Shown: piece by piece, positions 8,095-32,000 of the stretch
Layout of the letters: the number at the start of each line of letters is the position of its first letter
Numbering within the stretch: the first letter of the stretch is position 1
Origin: Candidatus Saccharimonadota bacterium
GTDB lineage: Bacteria > Patescibacteriota > Saccharimonadia > Saccharimonadales > UBA4665
Reading direction: 5' to 3'
DNA: 32,000 bases
Assembly: GCA_003516025.1 (NCBI GenBank)
Contig: CP023991.1
Coordinates: 300,001 to 332,000, forward strand
Notes under the pieces: model-generated
Seen by the model: the letters and a program-made list of their open reading frames with translations, nothing else
What the model was told of the DNA's origin: nothing
The model's database searches: none
Position numbers and translations under genes: made by a program

Positions 8095-8108
8095 ACCATA
8101 AGCACTTC

Positions 8109-8137
8109 AAAGACTTTTTCGGAAGTCTTTTTGTTTT
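8109..8137 (+). terminator. Rho-independent terminator after tRNA-Gly
   Basis: AAAGACTT (8109-8116) / AAGTCTTT (8123-8130) stem followed by TTGTTTT. Confidence 0.6.
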
Positions 8138-8152
8138 CTGTATACTAATTCT

Positions 8153-8665
8153 ATGAAGACATCAGTCCTAATTACTGCGGTGGCTGGCTCGGGAAAGTCC
8201 ACGACATGCAAAGCTTTGCAGCAGCTTGGTTACAATGCTTGCGATCTCGAGTCCATTTTAGGATTATATGAACTTGTTGATGAAAAGACCGAAAAAACAA
8301 TACCAGGCAATCTTGAGCAAATTCGTGACGGCGTGGATTGGCGTTGCAATAAAGTGAAGTTGCAGAGTTTACTAAATAATAGTGATGAAGAATTAACATT
8401 TTACTGTGGTGGTATGTCTAATACGGAAGAAATTTGGGACGTATTCGATAAAGTCATTGTATTAACAGTGAGTGATACGACAACCGTATTGCGCTTATCT
8501 AGTCGCCAAGCCGGTGAATTTGGTAGCACTCAAGAAAATAGGGATTGGGTACTGAGTTGGAAACATGGTTTTGAGCGACGATTACTTGAAGCGGGTGGTA
8601 TACCCGTAAGTGCTGAAGATGTTCCCGCAGAGGTTGCGAAATTGGTCGTGAAAGCAGCGTTATGA
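8153..8665 (+). CDS. P-loop NTPase / small-molecule kinase-like (AAA_18/33-type)
   Basis: 170 aa. Walker A AVAGSGKST at the N-terminus. Homologous in layout to the ORF at 12505-13035. Confidence 0.65.
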   Translation: MKTSVLITAVAGSGKSTTCKALQQLGYNACDLESILGLYELVDEKTEKTIPGNLEQIRDGVDWRCNKVKLQSLLNNSDEELTFYCGGMSNTEEIWDVFDKVIVLTVSDTTTVLRLSSRQAGEFGSTQENRDWVLSWKHGFERRLLEAGGIPVSAEDVPAEVAKLVVKAAL

Positions 8666-8937
8666 TTGATTATAATATATTAAATCGATTCCTTGACGAT
8701 CAGAATAGAGTTACTGTTTGGCCTGCAAAACCAGCCAACAAGTCACTTATTTTAGATTATCTTGTGACAAAATTTGAGATTAACAGAGTGTATAGAGAAA
8801 AAGAAGTTAACGAGATATTGAATGCTTGGCATACTTTTGAAGATTGGGCTGTTCTTCGGCGTGCATTAATAGACGAAGGTTATATGACTCGTGACATAAA
8901 TGGCTATGAGTATCAAGTTGCCGACATATCTGACTAA
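8662..8937 (+). CDS. DUF2087 domain protein
   Basis: 91 aa. ATGA start/stop overlap with the upstream gene. RFLDDQNRVTVWPAKPANKSLILDYL...YREKEVNEIL...DWAVLRRALIDEGYMTRD fits the DUF2087 pattern. Confidence 0.7.
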   Translation: MIDYNILNRFLDDQNRVTVWPAKPANKSLILDYLVTKFEINRVYREKEVNEILNAWHTFEDWAVLRRALIDEGYMTRDINGYEYQVADISD

Positions 8938-8965
8938 AAGATGAAACAGTACTATTGCAAAAAGT

Positions 8966-9388
8966 ATGTTAACATGTAATTATATTTTGATGACTGATTC
9001 CAGTGAGTCCAAAATAAAGAAAATTGAGCGAACTCTCGCATTAAATAATGCTGCCGACCAGCTCGGATTTGATGCTGATACACGACGGGCTATGACCCAT
9101 GTCGAAACATTGATTTCTGTTTTGGAGAAAGCTGGGATGACATGGGCGGATGTTCCTGACAACTTTACGCTCGAAAAAGCTATAGGCGAGTCCCCTGATG
9201 CTATGATGGTGCTTGAAACGGGACGAGCGCTTGACCCCGGGCTAGTGCTTGCCGAACAAGCTCAATATGACCCAGGGCTAAGAACTGCATTACTTGCTAA
9301 GTATGTGCAGTGTATCGAAGTTGCTTTACCTGGCGAGAGAATGACTGTAGAAGAAACACTGCAATCATTACTACAGCGGGAACCATAG
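8966..9388 (+). CDS. Hypothetical protein
   Basis: 140-aa ORF with an alternative ATG at 8990 (MTDSSESK...). No motif recognised. Confidence 0.45.
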   Translation: MLTCNYILMTDSSESKIKKIERTLALNNAADQLGFDADTRRAMTHVETLISVLEKAGMTWADVPDNFTLEKAIGESPDAMMVLETGRALDPGLVLAEQAQYDPGLRTALLAKYVQCIEVALPGERMTVEETLQSLLQREP

Positions 9389-9404
9389 GTGTAACTCCCA
9401 GCTC

Positions 9405-9509
9405 TTACTTAGTCTGTAAGTATTCCTCATAAGAAACCTCAAGTATTCTCCTCCATCGCATTAGTTCTTCTCTGATAAGGTGTAAACTTTTACCCCCTTG
9501 CTGCACCAA
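9405..9509 (-). pseudogene. Orphan 3' gene fragment (34 codons plus stop), copy 1
   Basis: Minus strand reads LVQQGGKSLHLIREELMRWRRILEVSYEEYLQTK*. An in-frame TAA lies 13 codons upstream of the homologous part, and there is no ATG or SD. It is paralogous to 10275-10379. Confidence 0.55.
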
Positions 9510-9512
9510 ATT
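9471..9512 (+). repeat. Island junction repeat, copy 1 (core TGCTGCACCAAATT at 9499-9512)
   Basis: TCTGATAAGGTGTAAACTTTTACCCCCTTGCTGCACCAAATT is nearly identical to 10341-10381. Confidence 0.8.
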
Positions 9513-9523
9513 GAATAATAGAG

Positions 9524-9555
9524 AAGACGCATTTTCGTGATGCGTCTTTTAATTT
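9524..9555 (+). terminator. Hairpin/terminator after junction repeat 1
   Basis: AAGACGCAT (9524-9532) / ATGCGTCTT (9540-9548), a 9-bp perfect stem, then TTTAATTT. Confidence 0.55.
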
Positions 9556-9616
9556 CAAGCCCATCTGTTATATAGGTGAGAGTACCGTGTAGTCGATGTC
9601 CTGTTATCATTACTAT

Positions 9617-10264
9617 ATGACCGATATTGAAGTAGATGTATTAGCGGAAGAACTATATAAATATGGACAGATGAAACAACTTCTTAAAAAAGCTGATGCC
9701 ATTGTTGCTTTAGGAAATATGGATTTGCGGTTGGCTACTAGGGCTGCCGAACTTTATCACGAAGGTTTAGCATCTACTGTCGTAGCATCTGGAGGCATAG
9801 GTAGGCTCACTCCGAAGGAATGGACAAACCCCGAAGCTGTTATTTTTGCGGAAGAACTATATAGATGTGGAATGCCTGGCGACAATGTTATCGTTGAAGT
9901 GAAATCTACTAACTTGCCAGAGAATATTCGACTGTCGCTGGAGTCACTCAATCATGCGGGACTAAAATCGGAACATTTGATACTTGTATCACTCCCGTTT
10001 GCTGAACGTAGAATTATGAGATTGTGCCAGAAACAATTCCCTCACGTCGTCATTCAAATTACATCGCCGAATATCTCTTATCAAGAATATGCCAATGATG
10101 CGATTAGTAGAGAAGAGTTAATAAACTTGATAGTAGGTGAGATAGATAGATTAGATAAATTTCCCTCCAAAGGGTTTAGTATGCCCGAGCAAATACCAGA
10201 AGTAGTACTGGGTGCAATGAATAAGCTAATGAATGTTGGCTTCGATAAGTACAAGGTAGTGTGA
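9617..10264 (+). CDS. YdcF/DUF218 family protein
   Basis: ATG at 9617 within ORF 9596-10264. VALGNMDLRLATRAAELYHEGLASTVVASGGIG matches the DUF218 (ElyC/SanA/YdcF) core. Confidence 0.7.
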   Translation: MTDIEVDVLAEELYKYGQMKQLLKKADAIVALGNMDLRLATRAAELYHEGLASTVVASGGIGRLTPKEWTNPEAVIFAEELYRCGMPGDNVIVEVKSTNLPENIRLSLESLNHAGLKSEHLILVSLPFAERRIMRLCQKQFPHVVIQITSPNISYQEYANDAISREELINLIVGEIDRLDKFPSKGFSMPEQIPEVVLGAMNKLMNVGFDKYKVV

Positions 10265-10274
10265 CTCTCTGCAT

Positions 10275-10379
10275 TCATTTAGTTAGCAAATACTCTTGAT
10301 ACGGTACATCTAGTATTTCTCTCAAACGAGCCATCTCATCTTTGATAATGTGTAAACTTTTACCCACTTGCTGCACCAA
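10275..10379 (-). pseudogene. Orphan 3' gene fragment (34 codons plus stop), copy 2
   Basis: Minus strand reads LVQQVGKSLHIIKDEMARLREILDVPYQEYLLTK*. It is immediately preceded by an in-frame TAA. 22/34 residues are identical to copy 1, with mostly conservative differences. Confidence 0.55.
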
Positions 10380-10381
10380 TT
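10341..10381 (+). repeat. Island junction repeat, copy 2 (core TGCTGCACCAATT at 10369-10381)
   Basis: TTTGATAATGTGTAAACTTTTACCCACTTGCTGCACCAATT. Confidence 0.8.
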
Positions 10382-10419
10382 AGAACCAAACGATTTTGGA
10401 ACAGCATTGTTTCTAACTG

Positions 10420-10445
10420 AAAGACCCTATTAGGGTCTTTTTTCT
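10420..10445 (+). terminator. Rho-independent terminator after junction repeat 2
   Basis: AAAGACCCT / AGGGTCTTT stem followed by a T-run. Confidence 0.7.
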
Positions 10446-10473
10446 TGACGTGAGCAGTAAAACACATTATATT
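10445..10473 (+). promoter_or_regulatory. Near-consensus sigma70 promoter positioned for a leaderless arsR mRNA
   Basis: TTGACG (10445-10450), 17-nt spacer, TATATT (10468-10473), then 7 nt to the ATG at 10481. No SD. Confidence 0.55.
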
Positions 10474-10480
10474 CAACCAC

Positions 10481-10804
10481 ATGGTTGAAGAATCATTAAA
10501 TTATAACAATGTGTTTCACGCACTTGCCGACGAAACTCGTCGAGATATTTTGTTGCAGCTGAATTCTGGTGAGAAAACAATTACTGAAATTGCAAAGAAG
10601 TATTCAATGAGTTTTGCTGCTATTGCAAAACACCTAAATGTACTAGAAGCAGCGGCATTAATTTTCAAAAGGAAACAAGGTCGACTTCAAGTCATTTCAC
10701 CCAATCCGCAAACGGTAGCCGATATTACAGAGTATTTGAAGCAATACGAAGTTATGTGGGATAAACGGTTTAATAATCTAGAAAACATACTAAAGGAGAA
10801 CTAA
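10481..10804 (+). CDS. ArsR/SmtB family transcriptional regulator
   Basis: 107 aa. FHALADETRRDILLQL...KTITEIAKKYSMSFAAIAKHLNVLEAAALI. Confidence 0.85.
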   Translation: MVEESLNYNNVFHALADETRRDILLQLNSGEKTITEIAKKYSMSFAAIAKHLNVLEAAALIFKRKQGRLQVISPNPQTVADITEYLKQYEVMWDKRFNNLENILKEN

Positions 10805-11301
10805 TGAACGAAACAGTACTTACACACGAAGGCACTAAGTTAACAATTGAGCGAGTCATTAATGCCCCTAAAGATAAAGTTTGGGAAGCATACGCTGACG
10901 CGGATGTATTCGCTAAGTGGTACTCAACAGACGGCTGGACGACACGAGTAAAGCACTTTGACTTTAGTGCGGGCGGTTATACGCTTTTCGCAATGAAGTG
11001 CGAGGATGAAAGTCAAGAAATGTTTGGACAAGAGAGTTGGAACAAGTCGGAGTTCAGTACCGTTATTCCTAAAGACGTATTCACCTATAAGGATAGCTTT
11101 TCAGATGAAGACGGCAACTTAAACGAGAATATGCCAAGCACTGAAGTAACGGTCACTTTAGAAGAAACGGGTGATGCAACAAAGATCACATCGGTGAGTA
11201 TATTCGGTTCAGAAGCTGGACTTCAGCAAGCCTTAGCAATGGGTATGGAAGAAGGTGTTAAGCAGACCTTTAACAAGTTAGCGAATGTTGTAGAACAATA
11301 A
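10804..11301 (+). CDS. SRPBCC (Aha1/AHSA1-like) domain protein
   Basis: 165 aa. AAGGAG SD, and the start overlaps the arsR stop. INAPKDKVWEAYADADVFAKWY... is typical of the ArsR-linked SRPBCC partner. Confidence 0.7.
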   Translation: MNETVLTHEGTKLTIERVINAPKDKVWEAYADADVFAKWYSTDGWTTRVKHFDFSAGGYTLFAMKCEDESQEMFGQESWNKSEFSTVIPKDVFTYKDSFSDEDGNLNENMPSTEVTVTLEETGDATKITSVSIFGSEAGLQQALAMGMEEGVKQTFNKLANVVEQ

Positions 11302-11409
11302 GCTCTGAATGACTTTAGGTAATTAGACTCGGCATAGGTTAAACTGATTTACCATTTTTTAACTTATGCGAGTCTACATTGCCATTAGCGGTTAGAAATA
11401 CGCCGGCTA

Positions 11410-11422
11410 TGCTGCACCATTT
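11410..11422 (+). repeat. Island junction core, copy 3 (TGCTGCACCATTT)
   Basis: 12/13 match to the core of copy 2, at the same offset between genes. Confidence 0.55.
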
Positions 11423-11508
11423 CTGTGTAACATGAAAAACCTCTAACAGTGCTTTTTTTGTTTGCTAAAATAGAAATGAAACTAATTCTTATTAAGGGAA
11501 TAATCTAA

Positions 11509-11946
11509 ATGGCAACTATCAATCCTTACATTAACTTCAACGGAAATGCCGAAGAAGCATTCAATTTTTACAAATCCGTGTTTGGGGGCGAGTTTGAAAC
11601 GATTATACGCTTCAAAGATCTTGAAAGCGCTGAGTTCCCTGTACCTGAAAACGAAGCAAATAAAATCATGCGTATTGTTTTGCCGATCGGTGAAAATACT
11701 TTAATGGCCAATGATGTTCCTGAAAGTCTGGGTCCAGTAAATGAAAATGAAAACCGGTCCAAGATAGCGATTACTACAGAAACCAAAGAAGAAGCCGATA
11801 AGCTATTCAGAGGTCTTTCAGAAGGGGGCGCCATTGAAATGCCTATGGCGGAGAGCCCCTGGGGTACCTATTTTGCTATGTTTAGAGATAAGTACGGTAT
11901 CGAATGGACAGTAGAATTTGACTCAAATGGAGATGGGCAAGCATAG
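11509..11946 (+). CDS. VOC/glyoxalase superfamily protein (PhnB-like)
   Basis: 145 aa. INPYINFNGNAEEAFNFYKSVFGGEF...MANDVPE...PWGTYFAMFRDKYGIEWTV. Confidence 0.8.
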   Translation: MATINPYINFNGNAEEAFNFYKSVFGGEFETIIRFKDLESAEFPVPENEANKIMRIVLPIGENTLMANDVPESLGPVNENENRSKIAITTETKEEADKLFRGLSEGGAIEMPMAESPWGTYFAMFRDKYGIEWTVEFDSNGDGQA

Positions 11947-12044
11947 CTCGTCAAAGGCGATCCTAACTTCATTAAGAATGCCCAGCATTTGGCGGCTCTA
12001 ACCGTACGCAGCACCTCTGAATAAAGCTACACTTTTATTAATGA

Positions 12045-23489: not shown

Positions 23490-23563
23490 GGCGCCTTGGC
23501 GGAGCAGTTACGCAGCGGTCTGCAAAACCGCGTAGACGGGTGCAACTCCCGTAGGTGCCTCCA
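23490..23563 (+). tRNA. tRNA-Cys (GCA), CCA encoded, discriminator U
   Basis: GGCGCCT/AGGTGCC acceptor (one G-T pair), GCGGT-CTGCAAA-ACCGC anticodon arm, ACGGG-TGCAACT-CCCGT T arm. 74 nt. Confidence 0.85.
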
Positions 23564-23572
23564 AACAATTTA

Positions 23573-23660
23573 GGGCGAGTGGCGGAATTGGTATACGCGG
23601 CGGACTTAAAATCCGCTGGCCTTAACAGCCTTGAGGGTTCGAGTCCCTCCTCGCCCACCA
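23573..23660 (+). tRNA. tRNA-Leu (UAA), long variable arm, CCA encoded
   Basis: GGGCGAG/CTCGCCC acceptor, GCGGA-CTTAAAA-TCCGC anticodon arm, 16-nt variable arm, GAGGG-TTCGAGT-CCCTC T arm. 88 nt. Confidence 0.95.
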
Positions 23661-23704
23661 CTGATTCTTGCTATTATTTTTGTGTACCTAAGGGGGTTGC
23701 GACA

Positions 23705-24136
23705 ATGGAAACCAATGCTAACCACGATAATTGCCCATTTTGTAACCTCGATGACCGTATCCTTAAGCAGAACGACTATGCCCAAGTATTTTTGAGCGAC
23801 CCGCATAAAGTTGCCGGCCATTTACTGGTTACGCCCAAACGCCACGTCGAAAAGCCATGGGAGTTAACTAATCTGGAACTAACAGCTATTTTTGACCTCA
23901 TTTTCTGGATAGAGCAGAAGCTTATCGGCAAACTGGGTGATGGCTTCGACATCCGCCAGAACTACCGCCCGTTCGTTAATCAGAATCGTTTGAAGGTGAA
24001 CCACACGCATTTTCATGTTATCCCACGCTCTGAGGGTGACTATATTTATGAAATTTCCGAGCAGTACGAAAAAGATCTGTTCGTTGAACTCGACGACATG
24101 GAACGCGACGCCGTCGCCGATATGCTGAAAGACTAA
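23705..24136 (+). CDS. HIT (histidine triad) family protein
   Basis: ATG at 23705 (METNANHDNCPFC...). The track ORF start at 23555 overlaps the tRNAs. Histidine triad VNHTHFHVIPR. Confidence 0.85.
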   Translation: METNANHDNCPFCNLDDRILKQNDYAQVFLSDPHKVAGHLLVTPKRHVEKPWELTNLELTAIFDLIFWIEQKLIGKLGDGFDIRQNYRPFVNQNRLKVNHTHFHVIPRSEGDYIYEISEQYEKDLFVELDDMERDAVADMLKD

Positions 24137-24181: not shown

Positions 24182-25630
24182 ATGAATTACTTCGTCACAA
24201 CCTCTATTCCTTATGTCAACGGTGAGCCGCATCTTGGTCATGCCATGGAGTACGTCATGGCTGATGTTTTAGCCCGAACTGCCCGCAAAGAAGGCAAGCC
24301 GGTTATTTTCAGTATCGGTACCGATGAACACGGCGGTAAAATCGAAGAAAAGGCCAAGGAACTGGGCGTTAAACCACGGGAGTTTACTGACGAAATGAGC
24401 CAGAAGTTCCGCGACCTGGCCGAGGCGCTTAACGTTAGCGCCGACCGTTTTATCCGGACTACAGAGGCTAATCATGAAAAGCGGGCCCAGCTGGTCTGGA
24501 AGGCGCTGAAAGATGATATTTATAAGAATAAGTATGTCGGCTGGTACTGTACCGGCGACGAAGCTTTCTTTACCGAAGCCGAAGTTAAAGCTAACAACGG
24601 CGTCTGTCCGAACCACAATCGGCCGTACGAAAAAGTCGAGGAAGAAAACTACTTTTTCCACCTCAGCAAGTACAACGAGCACATCAAGCACGCTATTGAA
24701 TCGGGCCAGTTCCAGGTTATTCCGAAGACTAAACGCAACGAGATCCTGTCGGTTATCCATGAAGGGTTAGAAGATATCAGCATTTCACGGCCGGCTGACA
24801 AAATTTCCTGGGGCATTCCGGTACCTGGTGACAAAACGCAGGTTATGTATGTCTGGTTTGAGGCGCTGCTCAACTATATTACGGTGCTTGGTTATCCGGA
24901 ACATGAAGACTTTAAGCAGTTCTGGCCAGCCAACGTCCAAGTGATCGGCAAGGACATCATCCGCTTCCATGCTGCCATCTGGCCTGGTATATTACTCGGC
25001 CTCGGCCTGCCATTGCCAAAATCACTGTACGTACACGGCTTTATTAACATTGATGGCAAAAAAATGAGCAAATCGCTCGGTAACTACCTGTCTCCGTACG
25101 ACATCATCAATAAATACGGCGCTGATGCTTTCCGTTACTACTTCCTGCGCCATATCCCAAGCAATAGCGACGGTGACTTCAGCTGGGATAAATTCGAGGC
25201 CGCATATAATAACGAGCTGGCCAACGAACTCGGTAACGCCGTACAACGTACCGCCGCCATGGTCATGAAGTACCAGAACGGCCTGATCGGTCCGATTCCA
25301 GAGGCGGAACATGATATAGCGCAGTACCAGACAGCGCTTGAGCACTGTCATTTCGACCGGGCACTCGATGAAGTATGGGAGCAAGTGCGTGGTATCAACC
25401 AGTATATCGACGTTGAAAAACCTTGGACCATCGCCAAAGAGGGTGACGAAGAGCATCTTCGTGAAGTTTTAGCTTACCAGGCGAGCGCCTTACTGGAAAT
25501 CGCCGACCTGCTGGAACCATTCATGCCGGAAACTGCCGCTAAAATCCAGGGCATATTCCAGGAGGGCATCATCCACCCGCTGGATGGCACGCTATTCCCT
25601 AAGTTCGAAACGCCTGCCACGGAAGCGTAG
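24182..25630 (+). CDS. metG: Methionine--tRNA ligase (short form, no C-terminal tRNA-binding domain)
   Basis: 482 aa. PYVNGEPHLGH (HIGH), KMSKS, and WFEALLNY, typical of MetRS. Confidence 0.95.
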   Translation: MNYFVTTSIPYVNGEPHLGHAMEYVMADVLARTARKEGKPVIFSIGTDEHGGKIEEKAKELGVKPREFTDEMSQKFRDLAEALNVSADRFIRTTEANHEKRAQLVWKALKDDIYKNKYVGWYCTGDEAFFTEAEVKANNGVCPNHNRPYEKVEEENYFFHLSKYNEHIKHAIESGQFQVIPKTKRNEILSVIHEGLEDISISRPADKISWGIPVPGDKTQVMYVWFEALLNYITVLGYPEHEDFKQFWPANVQVIGKDIIRFHAAIWPGILLGLGLPLPKSLYVHGFINIDGKKMSKSLGNYLSPYDIINKYGADAFRYYFLRHIPSNSDGDFSWDKFEAAYNNELANELGNAVQRTAAMVMKYQNGLIGPIPEAEHDIAQYQTALEHCHFDRALDEVWEQVRGINQYIDVEKPWTIAKEGDEEHLREVLAYQASALLEIADLLEPFMPETAAKIQGIFQEGIIHPLDGTLFPKFETPATEA

Positions 25631-25632
25631 GG

Positions 25633-26490
25633 ATGAACATAGATCTGGTTGACACCCATTGTCATATTCAGTCCGCCGGTCTGCCGACCGGGGAGCGCCA
25701 AACTTTGGAAAAGTGGGCCAAAGTGCCCGAGCGGACACCGGAACTGATTATTGCCGATGCAGTCGCCAAAAACGTGCGGCGTATGGTGGTAGTTGGCTGT
25801 GATTTAGCCGATAGTGAGCAGGCGATTGCGACTGTGCAGAACCATCAGGAAACCTGGGCCAGTATCGGTTTGCACCCCCATGAGGCCGCCAGTAGCCTCG
25901 AAAATGGCCATTTGGACGCGTTTGCGGCCCTTGCAGGGCGTCCGAAGGTCATAGCTGTGGGTGAGTGCGGTCTGGACTACTTTTATGAGCATTCTCCACG
26001 ACAAGCTCAAATTACTGTGTTACGCTTCCAGATGGAGCTGGCGCTCTTGCATAATTTACCGATGATTTTTCATGTACGGGGCGCGTCGTCTGCGGAGCAG
26101 CGCTATAATGCAATGGATGATTTCTGGCCCATTTTTGACGAATATAACAGCGGTAGCAGCAAAATACGCGGCGTGCTGCATAGTTTTACCGATACGCGGG
26201 CTAACCTGGACCGGGCGATAGAGCGCGGGCTCTATATTGGGGTCAATGGAATTGCCACTTTTGCCAAGGACCCGGCCCAGCTGGATATGTATAAAAATAT
26301 CCCGTTGTCAAACCTTTTATTGGAAACTGACGCTCCGTTCTTGACGCCCACTCCGTACCGTGGTACTATTTGTGAGCCATATCACATTTCAGTGATAGCC
26401 GACTTCTTGGGTGGACTCCGACAAGAGCCCCTACCGGATCTGGCCAGAGCCACGACCGAGAACGCCGAAGCACTGTTTTCGTTACAGTAG
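25633..26490 (+). CDS. TatD family metal-dependent hydrolase
   Basis: 285 aa. LVDTHCHI, GECGLDYFY, IFHVR, HSFTD, LLLETDAPFLTP. Confidence 0.9.
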   Translation: MNIDLVDTHCHIQSAGLPTGERQTLEKWAKVPERTPELIIADAVAKNVRRMVVVGCDLADSEQAIATVQNHQETWASIGLHPHEAASSLENGHLDAFAALAGRPKVIAVGECGLDYFYEHSPRQAQITVLRFQMELALLHNLPMIFHVRGASSAEQRYNAMDDFWPIFDEYNSGSSKIRGVLHSFTDTRANLDRAIERGLYIGVNGIATFAKDPAQLDMYKNIPLSNLLLETDAPFLTPTPYRGTICEPYHISVIADFLGGLRQEPLPDLARATTENAEALFSLQ

Positions 26491-26517
26491 ATAATCGCGC
26501 ACCAACGTATAACAACT

Positions 26518-26832
26518 ATGCACAACAAGCCCAACTCACCAATTGAAGGTGGCCATAATAATCATTCCGAACTGATGGTATCCGCGTCGGCGCGCCGCCA
26601 AGCAGTCGCCAACGCGATTTACTGGGTCAGCAACACTGTCGACCACCAGATAATCGCGGAAGCGGCTATGCAGGCCTCTATGCAAACAGCTACCGTACCC
26701 GAAGTTGTCGCGCAGCAACCCTCAGCTACCGTACCGGACGCCGTAGCCGATGTGGCAACCCTGCAACTTGGCAAGGATGACGACGGCATCAATTATAAAT
26801 TGCTTAATTCATTGGAAGCGAGCGAGGCTTAG
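26518..26832 (+). CDS. Hypothetical protein
   Basis: 104-aa ORF with an internal ATVPE/ATVPD repeat. No motif recognised. Confidence 0.4.
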   Translation: MHNKPNSPIEGGHNNHSELMVSASARRQAVANAIYWVSNTVDHQIIAEAAMQASMQTATVPEVVAQQPSATVPDAVADVATLQLGKDDDGINYKLLNSLEASEA

Positions 26833-26840
26833 GAAAAGCT

Positions 26841-27212
26841 ATGTCAATTCTTGACTCGATCTTTAAACAGAAAAAGGATGAGCGCCGCGCGCAGATTCAC
26901 CGGGCGCTAATTCACCATGAAGCTAAAATTGGCAGCGAACTGTTCGGCCCGATCCCTGAAGGCAGCCGCCGGGAATTTTTCTGCCTGGATGAGCACACCT
27001 GGGTATGGCATGAAGAATGGACCGACGCTAATGGTAACCGCCAGTTTATGATGACCCGTTATGACGTCCGCCCGGGCGGCATCGTGAAGTCACAGGGCCA
27101 CAATAATTACCAAAGTTTATCACGCCAAGAACTCATAAACTTTTACCGGGCCGTCCAGATGTATGGCCAGCGGGTTGACGCGGAATACGCCCGTATGTTG
27201 CAGGCTGCTTAA
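26841..27212 (+). CDS. Hypothetical protein
   Basis: 123-aa ORF, GGAAAAG upstream. Globular-looking composition with no motif recognised. Confidence 0.5.
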   Translation: MSILDSIFKQKKDERRAQIHRALIHHEAKIGSELFGPIPEGSRREFFCLDEHTWVWHEEWTDANGNRQFMMTRYDVRPGGIVKSQGHNNYQSLSRQELINFYRAVQMYGQRVDAEYARMLQAA

Positions 27213-27244
27213 CAAGCAACCTCAATCCTTTATACTGGTATTAG

Positions 27245-28381
27245 ATGAATCCGATATATCTCGACCATGCCGCGGCGACGCCGTTGGACGCGGAAGTTTT
27301 AGCGGCTATGCAGCCGTATTTTAGCGCGCAATTTTATAATCCTTCTGCGGTATACGGCGCGGCCCAGCGCGTATCTAAAGATTTGCAGGCTGCCCGGGCA
27401 TCGGTTGCACAGGTTATTGGCGCCAGGCCGGTGGAAGTTACATTTACGGCCGGTGGAACAGAAGCGAACAACCTGGCTATCCATGGCGTCATGTCCCGAT
27501 TCCCGGCCGCCAACATGGTTGTAAGCGGTATCGAACACGATTCAGTGCTGGGCCCAGCCGCGCAGTATACCTATAAGCTCGCGCGGGTAAACGAGCAGGG
27601 CGTTGTAGATATACCGGCTCTGCGGGCACTGGTTGATGACCAGACGGCGCTGATAAGCGTGATGTATGCCAACAATGAAATTGGTACCGTACAGCCGGTA
27701 CGCGACATCAGCAACCTGGTAGCTGAAATTCGGAAAGACCGCCGTGCCAGAGATGTTGCTATGCCGCTGTATATTCATACCGACGCCGCTCAGGCCGGAA
27801 ACTATCTTGATATCCACGTCTCACGGTTGGGAGTCGACTTGATGACGCTGAACGGCGGTAAGGTGTATGGGCCAAAGCAGAGCGGTATTTTGTTCGCGAA
27901 AAGTGGCATGCAGTTGCAGCCGCTGGTTTATGGCGGAGGCCAGGAACACAATCTGCGCAGCGGAACCGAAAACGTCGCCGGTTGCATCGGTTTAGCAACG
28001 GCGCTACAAAAAGCGCAGGCTACGCGTGGTGAAGAGGGCCGGCGCTTGCAAGACTTGCAGGCCTACTTCATCGATCAGTTACAGGCGCGCATACCAACCA
28101 TAGTTATTAACGGTTCATTAAAAAAACGGCTGCCAAACAACCTGCATATTACTATTCCGGGCACTGATAACGAGCGTTTGTTGTTTGGACTGGATGAAAA
28201 AGGCATTATGGCCGCCGCCGGGTCGGCCTGCAGTGCCAGTAATGACGAGCCGTCGCATGTGCTTACAGCACTTGGTATCAGTGATGAACTCGCCCGGGCC
28301 AGTTTACGGTTTAGTATGGGCCGGGAAACAACGCGCGAACAGCTGGACCGGGTCGTGGCGACTCTGTCCACTCTCATCTAA
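27245..28381 (+). CDS. Cysteine desulfurase (class V aminotransferase, NifS/IscS family)
   Basis: 378 aa. IYLDHAATTP-like N-terminus, FTAGGTEANN, HTDAAQA, a lysine in NGGKVYGPK, RSGTENV, and the active-site loop AAGSACSAS. Confidence 0.9.
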   Translation: MNPIYLDHAAATPLDAEVLAAMQPYFSAQFYNPSAVYGAAQRVSKDLQAARASVAQVIGARPVEVTFTAGGTEANNLAIHGVMSRFPAANMVVSGIEHDSVLGPAAQYTYKLARVNEQGVVDIPALRALVDDQTALISVMYANNEIGTVQPVRDISNLVAEIRKDRRARDVAMPLYIHTDAAQAGNYLDIHVSRLGVDLMTLNGGKVYGPKQSGILFAKSGMQLQPLVYGGGQEHNLRSGTENVAGCIGLATALQKAQATRGEEGRRLQDLQAYFIDQLQARIPTIVINGSLKKRLPNNLHITIPGTDNERLLFGLDEKGIMAAAGSACSASNDEPSHVLTALGISDELARASLRFSMGRETTREQLDRVVATLSTLI

Positions 28382-28419
28382 TAGCAGGTGCCGCCGCCGC
28401 GCGGAAGCTTGTTAACCTG

Positions 28420-28460
28420 TTATGCTTATGCTATAAATAGACCTGAAAGCATAAGCATAA
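28420..28460. promoter_or_regulatory. 13-bp perfect inverted repeat abutting the start of the ATPase-linked operon
   Basis: TTATGCTTATGCT (28420-28432) / AGCATAAGCATAA (28448-28460). The 15-nt loop contains TATAAA. The repeat ends 4 nt before the ATG at 28465, and no SD is present. Confidence 0.5.
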
Positions 28461-28464
28461 AAAC

Positions 28465-29340
28465 ATGAAAAAGCTCAAAAAACTGACCCATCTGCTCCTT
28501 TTGGTGCTGCTGTGCGCCAGTATGGGCAGTCCGGCAACCGCCGTGGCTGCCGACACTAAAACTACTGACAGTAAAGCCACTAACACTGATAGCGGCGTTC
28601 AGGGCTACGCGGCTGACAAACAGATTCCGGTCGGTACGATCGTACAGTTGCAGGGAAGTGGCGCCAGTAAGGTGGAAGTTTCCACTAAAGCTGATATTGG
28701 ACACATGTATGGTGTGGCCGTTGATAAGCTGAAATTATCAATCACTATTTCCAATTCAGCCATTCAAAACGAGGTGTTTGTAGCTACTGCCGGGACTTAT
28801 GATACCTTGGTAAGCTCACAGGGCGGTACCATAAAGGCTGGTGACTACGTGACGCTGTCGTCGGTAGACGGCGTCGCTAAAAAAGCCTCTACCGATGACA
28901 CGACCGTCTTTGGCCGGGCAGCCGCCAATTTCGAAGGCAAGGGCGACAGTATTGGCAAAACCACCCTAAAAGACACTAGCGGCAAGGCCAGTCAGGAAGT
29001 TGCCCTCGGTGTCATTCCCGTATCGATTGACGTACGCACTAACCCTGAAAAAAAGAGCACCAAGACTAAAGTCCCGGACTTTTTGCAACGCATCGGTGCT
29101 GCCGTCGCTGACAAACCGGTCGGTCCATTGCGTATGTATCTCAGTATCGCTATCACGGCGTTAACGATAGCTGCTGCCATCGTAATCCTGTATTCCGGCG
29201 TACGCAGTAGCATCATCGCTATCGGACGTAATCCGCTGTCGAAAAAGTCGGTTTTCAGGGGGCTTTTAGAGATTATATTTACCTCCATACTGATTATGAT
29301 TATCGGGTTATTTGCAGTATACTTATTGCTAAAGCTATGA
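28465..29340 (+). CDS. Secreted-domain protein with a C-terminal two-helix hairpin of ATP-synthase-c-subunit size and topology (assignment tentative)
   Basis: 291 aa. Signal peptide MKKLKKLTHLLLLVLLCASMGSPATAVA|AD, a roughly 195-aa Thr/Ser/Lys-rich domain, then a 68-aa hairpin (nt 29134-29337) with loop AIGRNPLSKK and a Glu in helix 2 (GLLEIIF). It sits directly upstream of the b-like, delta and alpha genes. Confidence 0.55.
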   Translation: MKKLKKLTHLLLLVLLCASMGSPATAVAADTKTTDSKATNTDSGVQGYAADKQIPVGTIVQLQGSGASKVEVSTKADIGHMYGVAVDKLKLSITISNSAIQNEVFVATAGTYDTLVSSQGGTIKAGDYVTLSSVDGVAKKASTDDTTVFGRAAANFEGKGDSIGKTTLKDTSGKASQEVALGVIPVSIDVRTNPEKKSTKTKVPDFLQRIGAAVADKPVGPLRMYLSIAITALTIAAAIVILYSGVRSSIIAIGRNPLSKKSVFRGLLEIIFTSILIMIIGLFAVYLLLKL

Positions 29341-29365
29341 TTTTTAACAGGGGGGCGACAACAAT

Positions 29366-29998
29366 ATGACTCAGTGGCAGATGCTAGCTGCCGGCGGTAT
29401 CCTACTCGTACTGGTAGGGTTGATTGTCGTTGCCGGGCAACTGTCACGCCTGTCACGCGCCTTGAGCGCCGGTAAGAAGCCCCTGAAGGGATCGGTTAAC
29501 GCCATTGGCGATTCGGCGGACCAGGCCGCTGAGGACGTTTTCGACAAAGAATTCCACGAGGAACTCCGCAACCGGGGTCGTTTGCATTTCGAAAAGATTA
29601 TCAACGAAAACTCCATGTTCCTTAAGCAGGACTTAGATATGACCATTGCCCAGCTGAACCAGTACCTGAAAAAGGAGATTGGCGATAAGCTGCAACTGGA
29701 ATTCGCTGATTACGCTAAAGCCATGCAGGATGCCCAGGAATTGGCCCTGGCGGCCCTCCATAAGAGCGCCAGCGCTGTCGACGAACAGCGTACCGCACTG
29801 GAAGCTGCCATGAAAAAGGATGTCGCCGAGCGTGAAGCGGCGCTTCTGGCCGGCTATGAGCAAAACATGGCCAAAATTGTCGAGCATTACTTATTACAGA
29901 CACTGGGCGACCAGTTTGACCTTAAGAGCCAGTTGCCGTTCATTCTTGAGCAGATGGAAGCTAATAAGCAGAAAATCATGGATGACATGCGGTTATGA
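29366..29998 (+). CDS. Single-TM coiled-coil protein, probable ATP synthase peripheral-stalk (b-like) subunit
   Basis: 210 aa. GGGGGG SD. N-terminal TM (LAAGGILLVLVGLIVVAG), then a long helical Glu/Lys/Ala/Gln-rich region. The stop overlaps the atpH start. The call rests on position and architecture, with no sequence motif. Confidence 0.5.
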   Translation: MTQWQMLAAGGILLVLVGLIVVAGQLSRLSRALSAGKKPLKGSVNAIGDSADQAAEDVFDKEFHEELRNRGRLHFEKIINENSMFLKQDLDMTIAQLNQYLKKEIGDKLQLEFADYAKAMQDAQELALAALHKSASAVDEQRTALEAAMKKDVAEREAALLAGYEQNMAKIVEHYLLQTLGDQFDLKSQLPFILEQMEANKQKIMDDMRL

Positions 29999-30498
29999 GC
30001 GAAACGACCGACTACCAGTTCCCAGCGTCATTAGTTGGCCGGGCAGATTTAGCCCGGTTGCTGCGTGAGATCGAGACTGTAGATGGAGACCTGGAATCGC
30101 AGAAGGTACGCGCGACCGGTAACGGCAGCAAGCCGGCTTACCATATGCCACTGCTCAGCCAGGCTCTGAGCGATTTCCTGAACATGAATAAGCTTGATAT
30201 AACAAAAGAGCAGGAGCGCATGGTTATAAAGGAGCGCGTCCGGGTTCTCAAGGATAAAGCACCGACAGTTCATATGACCTTCGCGGTTGAGGCTGACCCG
30301 GAAAGCCTGCAAACGTTAGTAGCGTGGCTGCGCGCTAATGCTCATCCGCATACACTGCTAAGTGTCGGCCTGCAACCAAACCTGGTGGGTGGAGTGTATC
30401 TTCGTACGCCGAACCACGTACATGACTACAGTATGCGCGCCTTGTTCGCTAACAGCCGCGACGTTTTGGCCAAAGAAATCGAAGGAATGACCGGGTGA
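29995..30498 (+). CDS. atpH: F-type ATP synthase delta (OSCP)-like subunit, divergent N-terminus
   Basis: 167 aa. The C-terminal VHMTFAVEADPESLQTLVAWL...LQPNLVGGVYLRTPNHVHDYSMRALF matches the delta pattern (..dp.LiGG..v..g....D.S....L). It is translationally coupled on both sides. Confidence 0.65.
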   Translation: MSETTDYQFPASLVGRADLARLLREIETVDGDLESQKVRATGNGSKPAYHMPLLSQALSDFLNMNKLDITKEQERMVIKERVRVLKDKAPTVHMTFAVEADPESLQTLVAWLRANAHPHTLLSVGLQPNLVGGVYLRTPNHVHDYSMRALFANSRDVLAKEIEGMTG

Positions 30499-32000
30499 AA
30501 GACAAACTGTTCGAAGAACTGGTCGAAAAGGGAAACCCGGTAGGTGAGATTATCGGTATTGATTCGTTCCTGGTTAAAGTCCGTGGACTGCAGCCAACTA
30601 ACGTGCATGCCCTGATCCGGTTCGAAGATGGCAGCCGCGGGTATGTACACCACGTATATGAAGACTACGTCGTCGTAATGAAACTCGGTATCACCGTTCT
30701 GCGCATTGGTATGGTATGCGTCATCCAGCACGAGGAGCTGCTTGCCAAAGTCGGTAAAAACTTCATCGGGCGGGTTATAAATATTTTTGGTGACCCGATT
30801 GACGGCAAGGGCACGATTCAGTCTGATGATGTCTGGGAAGTGTTCCATGAAGCACCGATGTTGTACGAGCGCAAACTACTCGATTCGCAGCTGGAAACCG
30901 GCATTACCATTCTGGACATTAACTTCTCCCTAGTGCGCGGCCAGCGTATGGCGGTTTTAGGCGACGGTAAGGTTGGTAAAACGGCTATGACCACCCAGAT
31001 CGCCATTAACCAAAAGAACACTGATATTACAGTGATCTATGTGCTGATTGCCAAACGCCAACGTGACGTGGCCCAGCTGGTAGCTCGCCTGGAAGAAAAC
31101 GATGCTCTCAAAAAAGCTATTATTATTGTTACGAACATGTTCGAATCCCTGGTGGCAACGTATCTGGCACCCTACATCGGCGCGGCCCACGGTGAATACT
31201 TTTGGCAAAAGCTCGGTATGGACACGTTGGTGATTTACGACGACCTAACCAGCCACGCCCAGGCCTACCGCGAAATCTCTCTGATTGCCGGTGTCAGCCC
31301 TGGCCGTGACTCCTACCCGGGTGACATGTTCTACACCCACTCCAGCCTGGTAGAGCGCGCCGGACGTTTGGACAGCAACTCGGCTAGCCAAACCATTCTG
31401 CCGATCATTTACGCTCCGTCTGGTGATATTACGGCCTATTTGCCGACCAACGTCATGTCCATGACGGATGGCCAGTGGATTCTCGATATGAACGTCTTTA
31501 AAGACACTATGCGCCCAGCCGTTAGTACCGGACTGAGTGTGACCCGCGTCGGTGGTGTCGGCCAAAACAAACGCCAGAAAGGCTTGGCCGCCGGCCTCAA
31601 TAAAACGCTGGCAGGATATCGCCAGGCTGAGGAGTACGCTCACTTTGGTACCGAACTATCCCCAGAGGCCCAGACGGACTATGACAAAGGTAAGGCCTTG
31701 TTTATTCTCATGAACCAGGACATTGGCGAAGGTTATAACCTTATGGAGCAGCAGTTCCTATTGGATATCGTGCTGAATTCCAACCCAGGTGAAAAGATTG
31801 ATATTAAGAAAATGAAAGAGCTGGTGCGTGATTACGCGCCTAAGGTAGTCGAGGACAAAGAAAACAGCAACTTTGACCAACTGCGTGATGAGCTCAAGGC
31901 ACAGGTTTTGATATTAACCGATGGTAAGAATGCCAGATTAGATGCGGCGACCGCGCCAGCGCCGGCGGAAGACGACAAACCGACAGATAGCGATAAAAAA
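30495..32000 (+). CDS. atpA: F-type ATP synthase alpha subunit (runs off the window end)
   Basis: Not in the ORF track. GTG at 30495 overlaps the atpH stop (GTGA), and the frame is open for 502 codons to the window end. RGQRMAVLGDGKVGKT (Walker A), LVIYDDLTSHAQAYREISL, PGRDSYPGDMFYTHSSLVERAG, LPTNVMSMTDGQWIL, RPAVSTGLSVTRVGG. Confidence 0.9.
   Translation, partial: MKDKLFEELVEKGNPVGEIIGIDSFLVKVRGLQPTNVHALIRFEDGSRGYVHHVYEDYVVVMKLGITVLRIGMVCVIQHEELLAKVGKNFIGRVINIFGDPIDGKGTIQSDDVWEVFHEAPMLYERKLLDSQLETGITILDINFSLVRGQRMAVLGDGKVGKTAMTTQIAINQKNTDITVIYVLIAKRQRDVAQLVARLEENDALKKAIIIVTNMFESLVATYLAPYIGAAHGEYFWQKLGMDTLVIYDDLTSHAQAYREISLIAGVSPGRDSYPGDMFYTHSSLVERAGRLDSNSASQTILPIIYAPSGDITAYLPTNVMSMTDGQWILDMNVFKDTMRPAVSTGLSVTRVGGVGQNKRQKGLAAGLNKTLAGYRQAEEYAHFGTELSPEAQTDYDKGKALFILMNQDIGEGYNLMEQQFLLDIVLNSNPGEKIDIKKMKELVRDYAPKVVEDKENSNFDQLRDELKAQVLILTDGKNARLDAATAPAPAEDDKPTDSDKK

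Follow-up and report, generated by a model that had tools for sequence, protein, structure and literature searches.

The operon headed by the 291-residue protein described here (hereafter X) is, judging from its sequence, a second and divergent F1-type ATPase and not the ordinary ATP synthase of the organism. The lack of PF00137 matches in X, the replacement of its helix-2 Glu, mostly by Gln, the absence of a nearby a subunit and the doubling of alpha, beta and gamma reported for a relative together lead to this assignment. We consider it somewhat probable that this non-canonical, F1-like rotary ATPase works beside the ordinary F1Fo enzyme and that X is the dedicated membrane/output subunit of a motor that does not pump ions.

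Organization of the operon

The features of the locus are collected in Table 1, numbered along the window, that is, the whole 32-kb stretch of DNA analysed. The operon comprises seven genes in the order X, b-like, delta-like, alpha, gamma, beta, epsilon. The full set is found on an identical contig (L001), on which alpha (512 aa) is followed by gamma (287 aa), beta (441 aa) and epsilon (109 aa). The ATG of the delta-like gene overlaps the b-like stop codon (ATGA) and the GTG of alpha overlaps the delta-like stop codon (GTGA). These overlaps had been noted in an earlier, sequence-only reading, as had the cysteine desulfurase upstream and the 291-residue protein in the slot of the missing atpB and atpE. 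ORFs, coordinates, loop and Glu spacing were rechecked, and all of its sequence-level statements were borne out.

Table 1. Features of the X locus in window coordinates
Feature	Position	Strand	Evidence
Class-V aminotransferase / cysteine-desulfurase-type gene	27245-28381		PF00266, E 2.6e-57
Promoter-like site: -35 TTGTTA (28409-28414), 17-nt spacer, extended -10 TGcTATAAA (28429-28437)	28409-28437	+	sequence reading
Perfect 13-nt inverted repeat TTATGCTTATGCT / AGCATAAGCATAA, arms 15 nt apart	28420-28460	.	found only in contigs of this species (L001, L002)
Gene X, 291 aa, membrane subunit heading the F1-like ATPase operon	28465-29340	+	ORF, homologues, synteny
Signal peptide of X, residues 1-28, predicted cleavage AVA/AD	28465-28548	+	sequence pattern
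Extracytoplasmic beta-rich domain of X, residues 45-192	28597-29040	+	AF2, Foldseek, Pfam
C-terminal two-helix membrane hairpin of X, residues 221-290	29125-29334	+	AF2 and charge pattern
Cytoplasmic loop motif G254-R255-N256-P257 of X	29224-29235	+	family alignment
b-like gene, 210 aa, presumed peripheral-stalk subunit	29366-29998	+	position and architecture only
delta/OSCP-like gene, 167 aa	29995-30498	+	weak delta/OSCP profile matches
alpha-type gene, GTG start at 30495	30495-32000, cut by window end	+	PF00006, E 1e-62

The promoter-like site is absent from the promoter scan list on account of the final A of its -10 hexamer. Many other Saccharibacteria loci have a related motif, TTATG[CG]TATAAT, upstream of X, and this conservation speaks for a transcription unit that begins with X. 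The inverted repeat, which stops 4 nt short of the X ATG, shares sequence with both the -10 region and the 5' leader. It is confined to contigs of the source species (L001 and L002), the other loci compared being without it, and could act as an operator or form a hairpin in the leader.

Divergence of the F1-like subunits

All F1 subunits of the operon score below the NCBIfam equivalog cut-offs (alpha, atpA model, 367 bits against a cut-off of 484; beta 433 against 463; gamma, TIGR01146, 65 against 194; epsilon 34 against 67). Alpha also matches the models of Mycoplasma MMOB1660 and MSC_0619, and beta those of Mycoplasma F1-like families, in each case below cut-off. Alpha has the Walker A sequence GDGKVGKT, a shortened N-terminus and an acidic/Lys/Pro tail. 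Beta retains Walker A GGAGVGKT, GERIRE and the Walker B Asp, by which motifs it would be catalytically intact. In epsilon the C-terminal helical domain is missing and the N-terminus is extended.

The delta-like protein hits the NCBIfam F0F1 delta model below cut-off (E 1.6e-4) and Pfam OSCP with E 0.014; its Nanosynbacter orthologue clears the Pfam OSCP cut-off (26.3 vs 22.3 bits), and the delta C-terminal domain is recognisable. The b-like protein has one N-terminal hydrophobic TM helix and, beyond it, an extended helical stretch; single-sequence AF2 modelled the chain, at a low pLDDT of 67, as helices 3-55 and 61-184, the latter of 124 residues. None of 35 b-like relatives matches PF00430 and the protein has no match among PDB sequences.

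When compared to canonical F1Fo operons (atpIBEFHAGDC, including that of Southlakia epibionticum), the last six genes show the same order, b, delta, alpha, gamma, beta, epsilon, and the beta catalytic motifs and the delta C-terminal domain are likewise preserved. Unlike these operons, the one described here is without atpI, a and c; its subthreshold scores and the altered termini of alpha and epsilon set it further apart. The canonical gamma of Southlakia matches PF00231 with E 3.5e-82, whereas gamma here reaches just the 65 bits given above against TIGR01146.

Architecture of protein X

The N-terminus of X reads MKKLKK-LTHLLLLVLLCA-...AVA/AD, in which a KKLKK n-region precedes a Leu-rich h-region and an AxA site, the pattern of a signal peptide; AlphaFold2 models a helix at 2-18 and then a disordered stretch at 20-42. 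The ectodomain that follows, modelled with pLDDT mostly 80-94, is predicted to fold like the cement, decoration and appendage proteins of phages. Foldseek against the PDB matched it to Borrelia phage BB1 (8pkh, E 7.8e-6) and to cement/decoration proteins of Pam3, Sf11, HFTV1, T1 and TW1, and against BFVD to preneck appendage barrel and DUF2190 proteins (best E 1.3e-9). Sequence signals for this common fold are weak: among 79 diverse family members (26-57% identity) PF23982 is matched by 25, PF22758 by six and PF09956 (DUF2190) by four. Whereas the phage proteins are capsid or tail components, the X domain is cellular, membrane-anchored and encoded in an ATPase operon.

The C-terminal helices of the AF2 model cover residues 221-255 and 260-290, with membrane spans at about 224-246 and 266-289. 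Positive charges are concentrated on the loop side and the predicted topology is N-out / C-out. The loop reads AIGRNP, and its GRNP is kept in 79/79 members as the sole invariant stretch of the family, three ectodomain glycines aside, which points to a docking site for a cytoplasmic partner. A small-residue face recurs on helix 1 throughout the 79-member alignment.

Relationship of X to c subunits

That X ends in a hairpin shaped like a c subunit and carrying an R-N-P loop, as first read from the sequence, is confirmed. F-type c subunits (PF00137) and X share a two-helix hairpin of some 70 residues, its orientation and a polar cytoplasmic loop with R-(N/Q)-P, and superpose at 1.9 A (Foldseek, c subunit 9itt_H, TM-score 0.80 c-normalised, 24% identity, non-significant at E 0.6). 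Unlike a c subunit, X has an exported domain of 190 residues fused to its hairpin and lacks the conserved carboxylate, the Gly-rich helix 1 (GxGxGxG) and any significant sequence or profile match. PF00137, the profile by which the hairpin was to be judged, is matched by 0/79 members; a PDB profile search with X returned nothing at E<=10, and hhalign probability remains below 10%.

The helix-2 Glu had been proposed as a c-like carboxylate, a role at odds with the family alignment. E269, the only acidic residue, lies at the cytoplasmic edge of helix 2, 12 and not 18 residues beyond Pro257, and a hydrophobic column of X aligns with the c-subunit carboxylate. Only 6/79 members have Glu here; in the other 73 it is replaced by Gln (49), Lys (7), Arg (5) or another residue. 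A search of all frames of the window, and of the surroundings of the gene out to 10 kb in 160 related loci, revealed neither a canonical a nor a canonical c subunit, although its queries (phmmer with E. coli a; a small c HMM) made it a weak one. X as the ion-binding c subunit of the cell is thus largely refuted, and since it has no ion-binding site the machine probably uses ATP for mechanical work at the cell surface.

A possible but distinctly less probable account is that X was derived from a c subunit after loss of ion binding and that a c-ring-like oligomer, turned by gamma/epsilon, spins an extracellular crown, the device being a transmembrane rotary drive and not a conformational relay. 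Several weak similarities fit such a descent, namely Foldseek superpositions on Chloroflexus and mammalian c subunits (22-24% identity, rmsd 1.9 A), a local hhalign P of 0.003 as compared to 0.19 for the reversed control, and weak matches of 7/79 members to the NCBIfam c model NF005521 (best E 0.012). Furthermore, the position of the invariant loop is that at which c rings touch gamma/epsilon, the small-residue face of helix 1 suits tight packing, and the complete central and peripheral stalks that are kept make sense only if something rotates against something else. However, homology of X to c subunits is not significant, the ectodomain fold is typical of trimer-forming proteins and not of rings with 8-17 subunits, and without an a subunit nothing obvious keeps the b-like anchor beside a turning ring.

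Synteny and spread of the X family

X directly precedes ATPase genes in 69/69 evaluable GTDB Saccharibacteria species loci, all of which keep the order X-b-delta-alpha-gamma-beta-epsilon though their upstream neighbours vary. The operon order is also found in 30/36 metagenomic loci of distant X homologues, which are 26-40% identical. Hence the arrangement is not due to chance, and X, with more than 1,471 close homologues and 2,941 homologue clusters (50% identity, E<=1e-3), is the most constant non-F1 component of the second, F1-like ATPase. The sequence-only reading was right to place the protein with the ATPase; its other option, an unrelated accessory protein, does not quite describe so constant a component with an invariant cytoplasmic loop.

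The remaining 6/36 distant homologues lie away from ATPase genes, five of them adjoining giant ORFs, which means that the family can exist away from the operon. Such orphans (L096, L105, L107, L146, L152, L085) have as neighbours either giant ORFs, 1,900-3,200 aa long, or genes of other kinds. These orphans would suit a protein of the cell surface or envelope that is merely co-transcribed with the ATPase and serves as an anchor for large surface proteins, or as an assembly factor at the AtpI position, without being part of the motor. The ectodomain is indeed a widespread phage-type binding/oligomerisation module, and the contact between X and F1 is a presumed one. Nevertheless we judge this explanation unlikely: synteny persists over deep divergence while upstream neighbours change, the sole invariant motif is on the cytoplasmic side and not outside, and Mycoplasma proteins that bear a signal peptide as well as two TM helices at the C-terminus co-purify with F1-like subunits under cross-linking (PMC12994834).

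A canonical ATP synthase in relatives

The complete genome of GWC2_44_17 (CP011211, locus L068) carries the same X operon and is reported with KO counts of one each for a, b and c and two each for alpha, beta and gamma; S. aalborgensis and M. amalyticus show the same counts (PMC12592800 Table S5). Going by this published table for relatives, the ordinary F1Fo ATP synthase is most likely encoded elsewhere in the source genome too, which speaks against the operon being the organism's F-ATPase with an odd rotor. A canonical atpB-atpE pair elsewhere, along with a hairpin free of PF00137 signal, was named at the outset as telling against the c-subunit idea; this combination is reported for GWC2_44_17 and expected in the source genome. 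Southlakia has the canonical operon only (PMC10633639). Bins of the CAILAD01 order, perhaps of the X type, are reported with alpha, beta, gamma and epsilon and without any a, b or c (PMC12592800 Table S5), and Seymour et al. grouped Saccharimonadia beta subunits with a 'non-respiratory' F-type clade (PMC10066038).

It is accordingly improbable that X is a true, highly diverged c subunit in an ion-translocating rotor ring with an external crown, the operon being the working ATP synthase or ion pump of the cell and the a subunit lying elsewhere or being replaced. Besides the weak similarities listed above, such a ring would be consistent with the c-like topology and length of the hairpin (AF2), with a gapless end-to-end profile alignment that brings the loops into register, with a loop R-N-P equal to that of mitochondrial-type c subunits, and with the retention of gamma, epsilon, b-like and delta-like genes. 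The missing signatures, the replaced Glu, the lack of a detectable a subunit and the canonical a and c reported for a relative bearing the same operon all argue against it. Least probable of all, and very much so, is an alternative F1 head and stalk that docks on the canonical a/c ring, for instance under particular conditions, in a swap regulated by X: single a, b and c next to two alpha, beta and gamma reported for genomes with the operon, and its own b-like and delta-like genes without a or c, would agree with this, yet divergence is greatest in gamma and epsilon (65 and 34 bits), the very subunits that would have to fit the c ring, X and its invariant loop are left unexplained, and the CAILAD01-order bins, again perhaps of the X type, are reported without a, b and c.

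Comparison with known systems

As comparators we used two systems of Mollicutes, the Type 3 F1-like X0 ATPase (M. mycoides MSC_0618-0624 / MMCAP2_0575-0581) and the Type 2 G1-ATPase (Mycoplasma mobile MMOB1610-1670). Each, like the operon here, is an additional and rapidly evolving set of alpha, beta, gamma and epsilon next to a genuine F1Fo (in our case inferred from relatives) and is without a or c, and the architecture of X matches that of their subunit with a signal peptide plus two C-terminal TM helices. For Type 2 (gliding) and Type 3 (MIB-MIP), as for the present system, ATP-driven force is proposed to cross the membrane to surface proteins (PMC12994834; see also PMC3369863), and Type 3 is needed for its surface system (PMC12994834). 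There are also clear differences. The b-like and delta-like genes, and therefore a peripheral stalk, are kept here and lacking in the Mycoplasma types, whereas their 12-TM X0 protein and small cytoplasmic protein are absent here. Gene order differs, and the host belongs to another phylum (Saccharibacteria/CPR). X has 291 aa and a phage-cement-like ectodomain against counterparts of 85-127 kDa; no similarity to them is detectable in its sequence, which also matches none of the NCBIfam Mycoplasma models.

Omnitrophota have a 'non-respiratory' F-type ATPase of which beta clusters with Saccharimonadia and alpha with Mycoplasma Types 2/3, its membrane subunits being undescribed in that study (Seymour et al. 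2023, PMC10066038). The Omnitrophota genes adjoin type IVa pilus clusters, whereas no pilus genes were found in the window. Kantor et al. (2013, PMC3812714) described an atypical CPR ATPase operon in WWE3 / OP11 with membrane subunits that 'lack significant homology' to the a, b and c subunits and a recurring transmembrane protein taken as putative c subunit; neither an ectodomain nor a second canonical operon is described there. Going by its description, this operon may represent a system of the same sort.

Proposed working of the complex

In the favoured reading, of a second ATPase with X as its output subunit, the signal peptide would export the beta-rich, phage-cement-like domain to the cell surface while the hairpin spans the membrane with the topology of a c subunit. 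In the F1-like head, the gamma/epsilon foot would be the docking point of the GRNP loop, and the b-like and delta-like proteins would hold the alpha3beta3 ring to the membrane. ATP hydrolysis by beta would then yield torque or a conformational change, and X would pass this motion through the membrane to the external domain and whatever that domain binds. With neither an a subunit nor a conserved membrane carboxylate, the complex should not carry ions across the membrane or synthesize ATP. The mechanical output, the oligomeric state of X and the process served are parts of this reading that we infer. If it is true, the machine does ATP-driven mechanical work at the cell surface.

Organization of the operon

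X, a 291-aa protein, is encoded by the first gene of an operon that begins in the window and ends beyond it. The remainder was found on an identical 9-kb contig of the same species (L001), which encodes alpha (512 aa), gamma (287 aa), beta (441 aa) and epsilon (109 aa), followed by a convergent gene; the operon has seven genes and a 12-TM protein is absent from it. Coordinates are listed in the table, in which L-numbers denote contigs or loci of the same species or of relatives that carry X homologues.

Coordinates of the operon, its surroundings and related loci
Feature	Position	Size	Remarks
Low-G+C stretch	window 8001-12000		G+C 0.38-0.43, about 0.50 in the rest of the window; short ORFs
ORF with H-T-H-F-H-V-I motif	window 23555-24136		immediately 5' of the metRS gene
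metRS, TatD-type hydrolase, 123-aa protein, cysteine-desulfurase-type gene	window 24182-28381		upstream block
Class-V aminotransferase	window, ends 28381		cysteine-desulfurase type (PF00266)
Spacer, aminotransferase to X		83 nt	contains the promoter-like site and the inverted repeat
Promoter-like site	in the 83-nt spacer		TTGTTA, 17 nt, TGcTATAAA
Perfect inverted repeat	window 28420-28460	13 nt	TTATGCTTATGCT ... AGCATAAGCATAA, 15-nt gap
X	window 28465-29340	291 aa
b-like ORF	starts 25 bases past X	210 aa	single N-terminal hydrophobic helix
delta-like ORF		167 aa	ATG overlaps the stop codon of the b-like ORF
alpha-type ORF			GTG overlaps the stop codon of the delta-like ORF; cut off by the window end
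alpha, tail included	window 31900-32000; L001 4056-5594		disordered, Ala/Pro/Asp/Lys-rich (…APAPAEDDKPTDSDKK…)
epsilon	L001 7783-8112	109 aa	30-residue acidic N-terminal extension and beta-sandwich domain
Bactofilin-like gene	L001 8109-9155 (-); L080 10201-11013 (-)	270-350 aa	convergent, immediately past epsilon
Giant ORFs at orphan X paralogues	L096 3260-12832; L105 4031-9787 and 11091-19577; L107; L146 7805-14719; L152 8461-12051	about 1,200 to over 3,100 aa	Pro/Asn/Gln-rich N-terminus
Distant X homologue	L085 2154-2987; L086 1705-2538		RNase H gene 3'

The inverted repeat shares sequence with the putative -10 box and with the leader of X and could serve as operator or as leader hairpin. 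It is confined to contigs of the window's species and was not seen in 80 other species; a role as a conserved regulatory element was therefore rejected. A promoter motif, TTATG[CG]TATAAT, was repeatedly found just 5' of X in related loci. The block from metRS to the cysteine-desulfurase-type gene recurs 5' of the operon in about 20 related loci, other species having different upstream genes. The motif of the ORF preceding metRS is typical of HIT-family nucleotide hydrolases. Elsewhere in the window, the low-G+C stretch could be an island of foreign or fast-evolving DNA.

Conservation of the operon

More than 1,471 close homologues of X were identified, and clustering at 50% identity (E<=1e-3) gave 2,941 homologue clusters. 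A first locus scan, of one genome per GTDB species, yielded 251 loci, almost all of them under the label Saccharibacteria or Saccharimonadales; 80 were kept. X was followed by the b-like, delta-like, alpha, gamma, beta and epsilon genes in every locus with enough downstream DNA (69/69), and the genes 5' of X vary between loci. A second scan, of metagenome contigs with a four-sequence alignment, was directed at homologues sharing no more than about 30% identity with X, and the same operon was present in 30 of the 36 evaluable loci. Given both counts, X is the constant first gene of the operon across deep divergence. The sequence-only reading, which had associated X with the ATPase genes, is in this respect borne out by synteny in relatives, and its description of the gene layout agrees with the ORF map and the raw sequence.

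A bactofilin-like gene occupies the same position past epsilon in most loci that reach beyond it, even with differing upstream neighbours; PF04519 matched its product with E-values of 4.8e-7 (L080) and 6e-4 (L001). Orphan paralogues of X with an intact GRNP loop and no ATPase genes 3' occur at L096, L105, L107, L146 and L152, where they adjoin the giant ORFs. Two of these ORFs were searched against Pfam and neither matched; the arrangement brings to mind the giant surface proteins linked to the motor of Mycoplasma mobile. ATPase genes are also absent beside the distant homologue at L085 and L086, 5' of which two secreted-looking proteins (294 and 361 aa) are encoded divergently.

F1 and stalk subunits

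Equivalog models did not match all eight subunits: a and c are absent, and the F1 subunits stay below the NCBIfam cut-offs, with 367 bits for alpha (cut-off 484), 433 for beta (463), 65 for gamma (194) and 34 for epsilon (67). The F1 subunits also match Mycoplasma F1-like models (MMOB1660/1670, MSC_0618/0619) and N-ATPase models, all below cut-off. Against the Mycoplasma families alpha scored 324 (cut-off 600) and 247 (520), and beta 390 (570) and 341 (850); against the alt_F1F0 (N-ATPase) models alpha scored 299 (750) and beta 389 (752).

The beta subunit retains GGAGVGKT, GERIRE and the Walker B Asp, its catalytic motifs, and is catalytically competent. Epsilon has no C-terminal helical (inhibitory) domain. 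The tail of alpha has no counterpart in canonical alpha. The N-terminal delta-binding helix of alpha is shortened by about 10 residues relative to the NCBIfam model. The delta-like protein of the window weakly matches OSCP/delta in its C-terminal half, and for its Nanosynbacter orthologue the match exceeds the Pfam cut-off. Only position and shape make the 210-aa protein b-like: PF00430 matched none of 35 relatives and no PDB relative was found. Its single-sequence AF2 model, of low confidence, shows a membrane helix followed by a helix of 124 residues.

Ectodomain of X

X was modelled by AlphaFold2 with 35 homologues (mean pLDDT 78). In the model a signal-peptide helix and a disordered linker rich in Thr, Ser and Asp are seen, with a beta-rich domain predicted confidently at residues 45-192, one short helix (205-215) and two long ones (221-255 and 260-290). 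A lipoprotein was also considered and rejected, since Leu-Leu-Cys is a poor lipobox.

By structure comparison of the predicted model, the ectodomain folds like phage cement, decoration and appendage proteins. The best 30 Foldseek matches in the PDB are phage capsid cement or decoration proteins, among them those of Borrelia phage BB1 (E 7.8e-6), Pam3, Sf11, HFTV1, T1 and TW1; among viral structures (BFVD) preneck-appendage barrels, DUF2190 and tail proteins were matched, the best with E 1.3e-9. In a diverse set of 79 family members, Pfam identified PF23982 (XM1 gp53 minor capsid) in 25, PF22758 in six and PF09956 in four, with a best E-value of about 1e-6. The window's X itself lies under the Pfam cut-off for a phage cement-type family (E 0.021), so the similarity in fold is shown and membership of the cement/decoration family is only probable. 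The phage cement-type fold usually trimerises.

The C-terminal hairpin and c subunits

In the sequence-only reading, the C-terminal two helices of X, joined by a GRNP loop, had been taken as the c-subunit-like part of an atypical F-ATPase. The shape stands: GRNP, a polar loop of the R-(Q/N)-P type, is present in 79/79 members, and signal peptide and charge distribution suggest an N-out/C-out topology. The ion-binding part does not. Neither Pfam (PF00137) nor NCBIfam gave a c-subunit match for X or for the isolated hairpin, PF00137 matched none of the 79 members at E<=10, and the sequence profile of the X family had no match in the PDB. Helix 1 has no GxGxGxG motif; it presents a small-residue face, with A, S, G or T at 227, 234, 238, 245, 248-249 and 252. 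The column that matches the c-subunit carboxylate is hydrophobic in the family. E269, the helix-2 Glu that the sequence-only reading had pointed out, sits at the cytoplasmic edge of the helix and is not conserved, its column holding Q in 49 members, K in seven, E in six, R in five, A in three and others. Among these members, which are 26-57% identical, only three ectodomain glycines and G254-R255-N256-P257 are invariant.

In hhalign comparisons of the hairpin with c subunits the probability ranged from 0.06 to 9.6%, below 1% for shallow profiles and 9.6% for deeper ones, which is a hint only. Three weak signals leave a shared distant origin of hairpin and c subunits open but unproven. The first is a gapless end-to-end profile alignment that puts the two loops in register (local P 0.003 vs 0.19 for the reversed control). 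The second is a set of weak matches to the NCBIfam c-subunit model NF005521 in 7/79 members (best E 0.012), which are as frequent as clearly spurious nadB matches. The third is R-N-P, the loop of mitochondrial-type c subunits. On the Chloroflexus c subunit 9itt_H the hairpin superposes with an rmsd of 1.9 A at 24% identity (E 0.6; TM-score, normalised to the c subunit, 0.80), as is expected of any helical hairpin. Judged by its sequence, the hairpin fails every defining c-subunit test and is not a c subunit.

Six-frame phmmer/HMM searches, which are of low sensitivity, detected no a or c subunit in the window, L001 or L002 (contigs of the window's species), nor within 10 kb in 160 related loci. 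Pfam found no a subunit among the neighbours at L080.

A probable second ATPase beside a canonical one

Ordinary ATPases are documented in related genomes. The one operon of Southlakia epibionticum is of the ordinary kind, atpI-a-c-b-delta-alpha-gamma-beta-epsilon, and just two PF00006 proteins are encoded in this species (PMC10633639), and rhodopsin-bearing Saccharibacteria have ordinary a and c genes (PMC9296517). KEGG orthologue counts in complete genomes list a, b, c and epsilon once each in TM7x, RAAC3_TM7_1, S. aalborgensis, GWC2_44_17 and Ca. Mycosynbacter amalyticus; alpha, beta and gamma are each listed once in the first two and twice in the other three (PMC12592800 Table S5). GWC2_44_17 (CP011211) is our locus L068, which carries a complete X operon. 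The L068 operon and these counts together make the X operon, where this can be checked, a second F1-type set that accompanies a canonical F1Fo; for the window's own genome we infer the same from relatives and the published table. The earlier reading of the X operon as the ATP synthase of the cell is contradicted by GWC2_44_17, reported with a and c plus doubled alpha, beta and gamma.

Seymour et al. remarked in passing that the beta subunits of Saccharimonadia fall together with a 'non-respiratory' F-type clade of Omnitrophota; the alpha subunits of that clade cluster with those of Mycoplasma Types 2/3 (PMC10066038). A WWE3 ATPase operon with membrane subunits lacking homology to a, b and c was described by Kantor et al. 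(PMC3812714). For bins of order CAILAD01 the published counts show alpha, beta, gamma and epsilon, and a, b and c are all missing (PMC12592800 Table S5); these lineages may have an F1-like motor only and no ATP synthase. No paper on an F1-like ATPase in Patescibacteria was found, and the term F1-like does not appear in the top-ranked literature on Saccharibacteria, TM7, Saccharimonadia or the candidate phyla radiation. ATPases are not mentioned by Jaffe 2021 (PMC8406219).

Discussion

In Mycoplasma, Type 2 ATPases power gliding via huge surface proteins. Types 2 and 3, the 'F1-like X0' ATPases, are additional alpha/beta/gamma/epsilon sets that lack a and c, and Type 3 is needed for, and co-purifies with, the antibody-cleaving MIB-MIP surface system (PMC12994834). 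The X operon is likewise an alpha/beta/gamma/epsilon set without a and c, its coexistence with a canonical set being known from the literature on relatives only. By description, X resembles MMCAP2_0577 and MMOB1650 in its signal peptide, ectodomain and two C-terminal TM helices (PMC12994834). In contrast to Types 2/3, the Saccharibacterial operon retains a peripheral stalk (b-like, delta-like) and lacks the 12-TM and small cytoplasmic proteins, and X is small with a phage-type domain. None of the 79 X members matched a Mycoplasma X0 family in NCBIfam. Since the NCBIfam cut-offs of the Mycoplasma families are not reached, we assign the operon to neither type and regard it as a variant of the F1-like X0 kind. 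From the N-ATPases, an alternate F1Fo with its own a and c, AtpQ/R and no delta, it differs by lacking a and c genes and by having a delta-like gene. With the X operon, an epibiotic phylum has a widespread variant of the F1-like X0 ATPases that is essentially undescribed.

As to its working, we lean, with some reserve, towards X as the dedicated membrane or output subunit of a second, non-pumping F1-like ATPase. Gamma and epsilon are the parts that contact the membrane rotor in F1Fo; here gamma, epsilon, the delta-like and the b-shaped proteins are retained, the a subunit and the conserved carboxylate are absent, and outside the ectodomain glycines only GRNP, facing the cytoplasm, is invariant in X. 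The GRNP loops of an X oligomer would dock on the gamma/epsilon foot, ATP hydrolysis would rotate or strain this assembly against the b/delta stalk, and the motion would be transmitted via the hairpin to the external domain; no ions would be pumped.

A bolder version, in which X forms a c-ring-like rotor without ion binding, turned by the gamma/epsilon shaft so that ATP hydrolysis spins an external phage-type crown, strikes us as improbable. Were it true, the assembly would be a transmembrane rotary drive for a surface process of epibiotic bacteria, with outputs such as movement, host grip or actuation of the giant surface proteins adjoining orphan X paralogues. X may instead be a trimeric relay; the ectodomain fold is one that usually trimerises. 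As for the output of a non-pumping motor, the bactofilin-like protein is a conceivable cytoskeletal partner, and together with the giant ORFs of 1,900-3,200 aa near orphan paralogues it hints at the cell envelope or cytoskeleton; these are leads, not evidence.

Saccharibacteria and other CPR bacteria are host-attached with tiny genomes, and reviews have repeatedly handled their 'F-type ATPase' as one enzyme of unclear purpose. Our analysis points to a second F1-type motor in many of them, one that has both stalks and no ion path and whose operon ties it to an exported, phage-like domain at the surface. The hypothesis is testable, because Ca. Mycosynbacter amalyticus, with two alpha, beta and gamma sets, is a cultured epibiont and genetic tools exist for Saccharibacteria. 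If it holds, some metabolic reconstructions should be reconsidered: the number of alpha, beta and gamma genes would be no sign of a second ATP synthase, and where a bin has only these genes there may be none at all. The Mycoplasma 'F1-like X0' idea would then apply to a distant phylum as well. The form there would be simpler, with three membrane helices in each pair of X and b-like protein, and this could render the mechanism of force transmission tractable.
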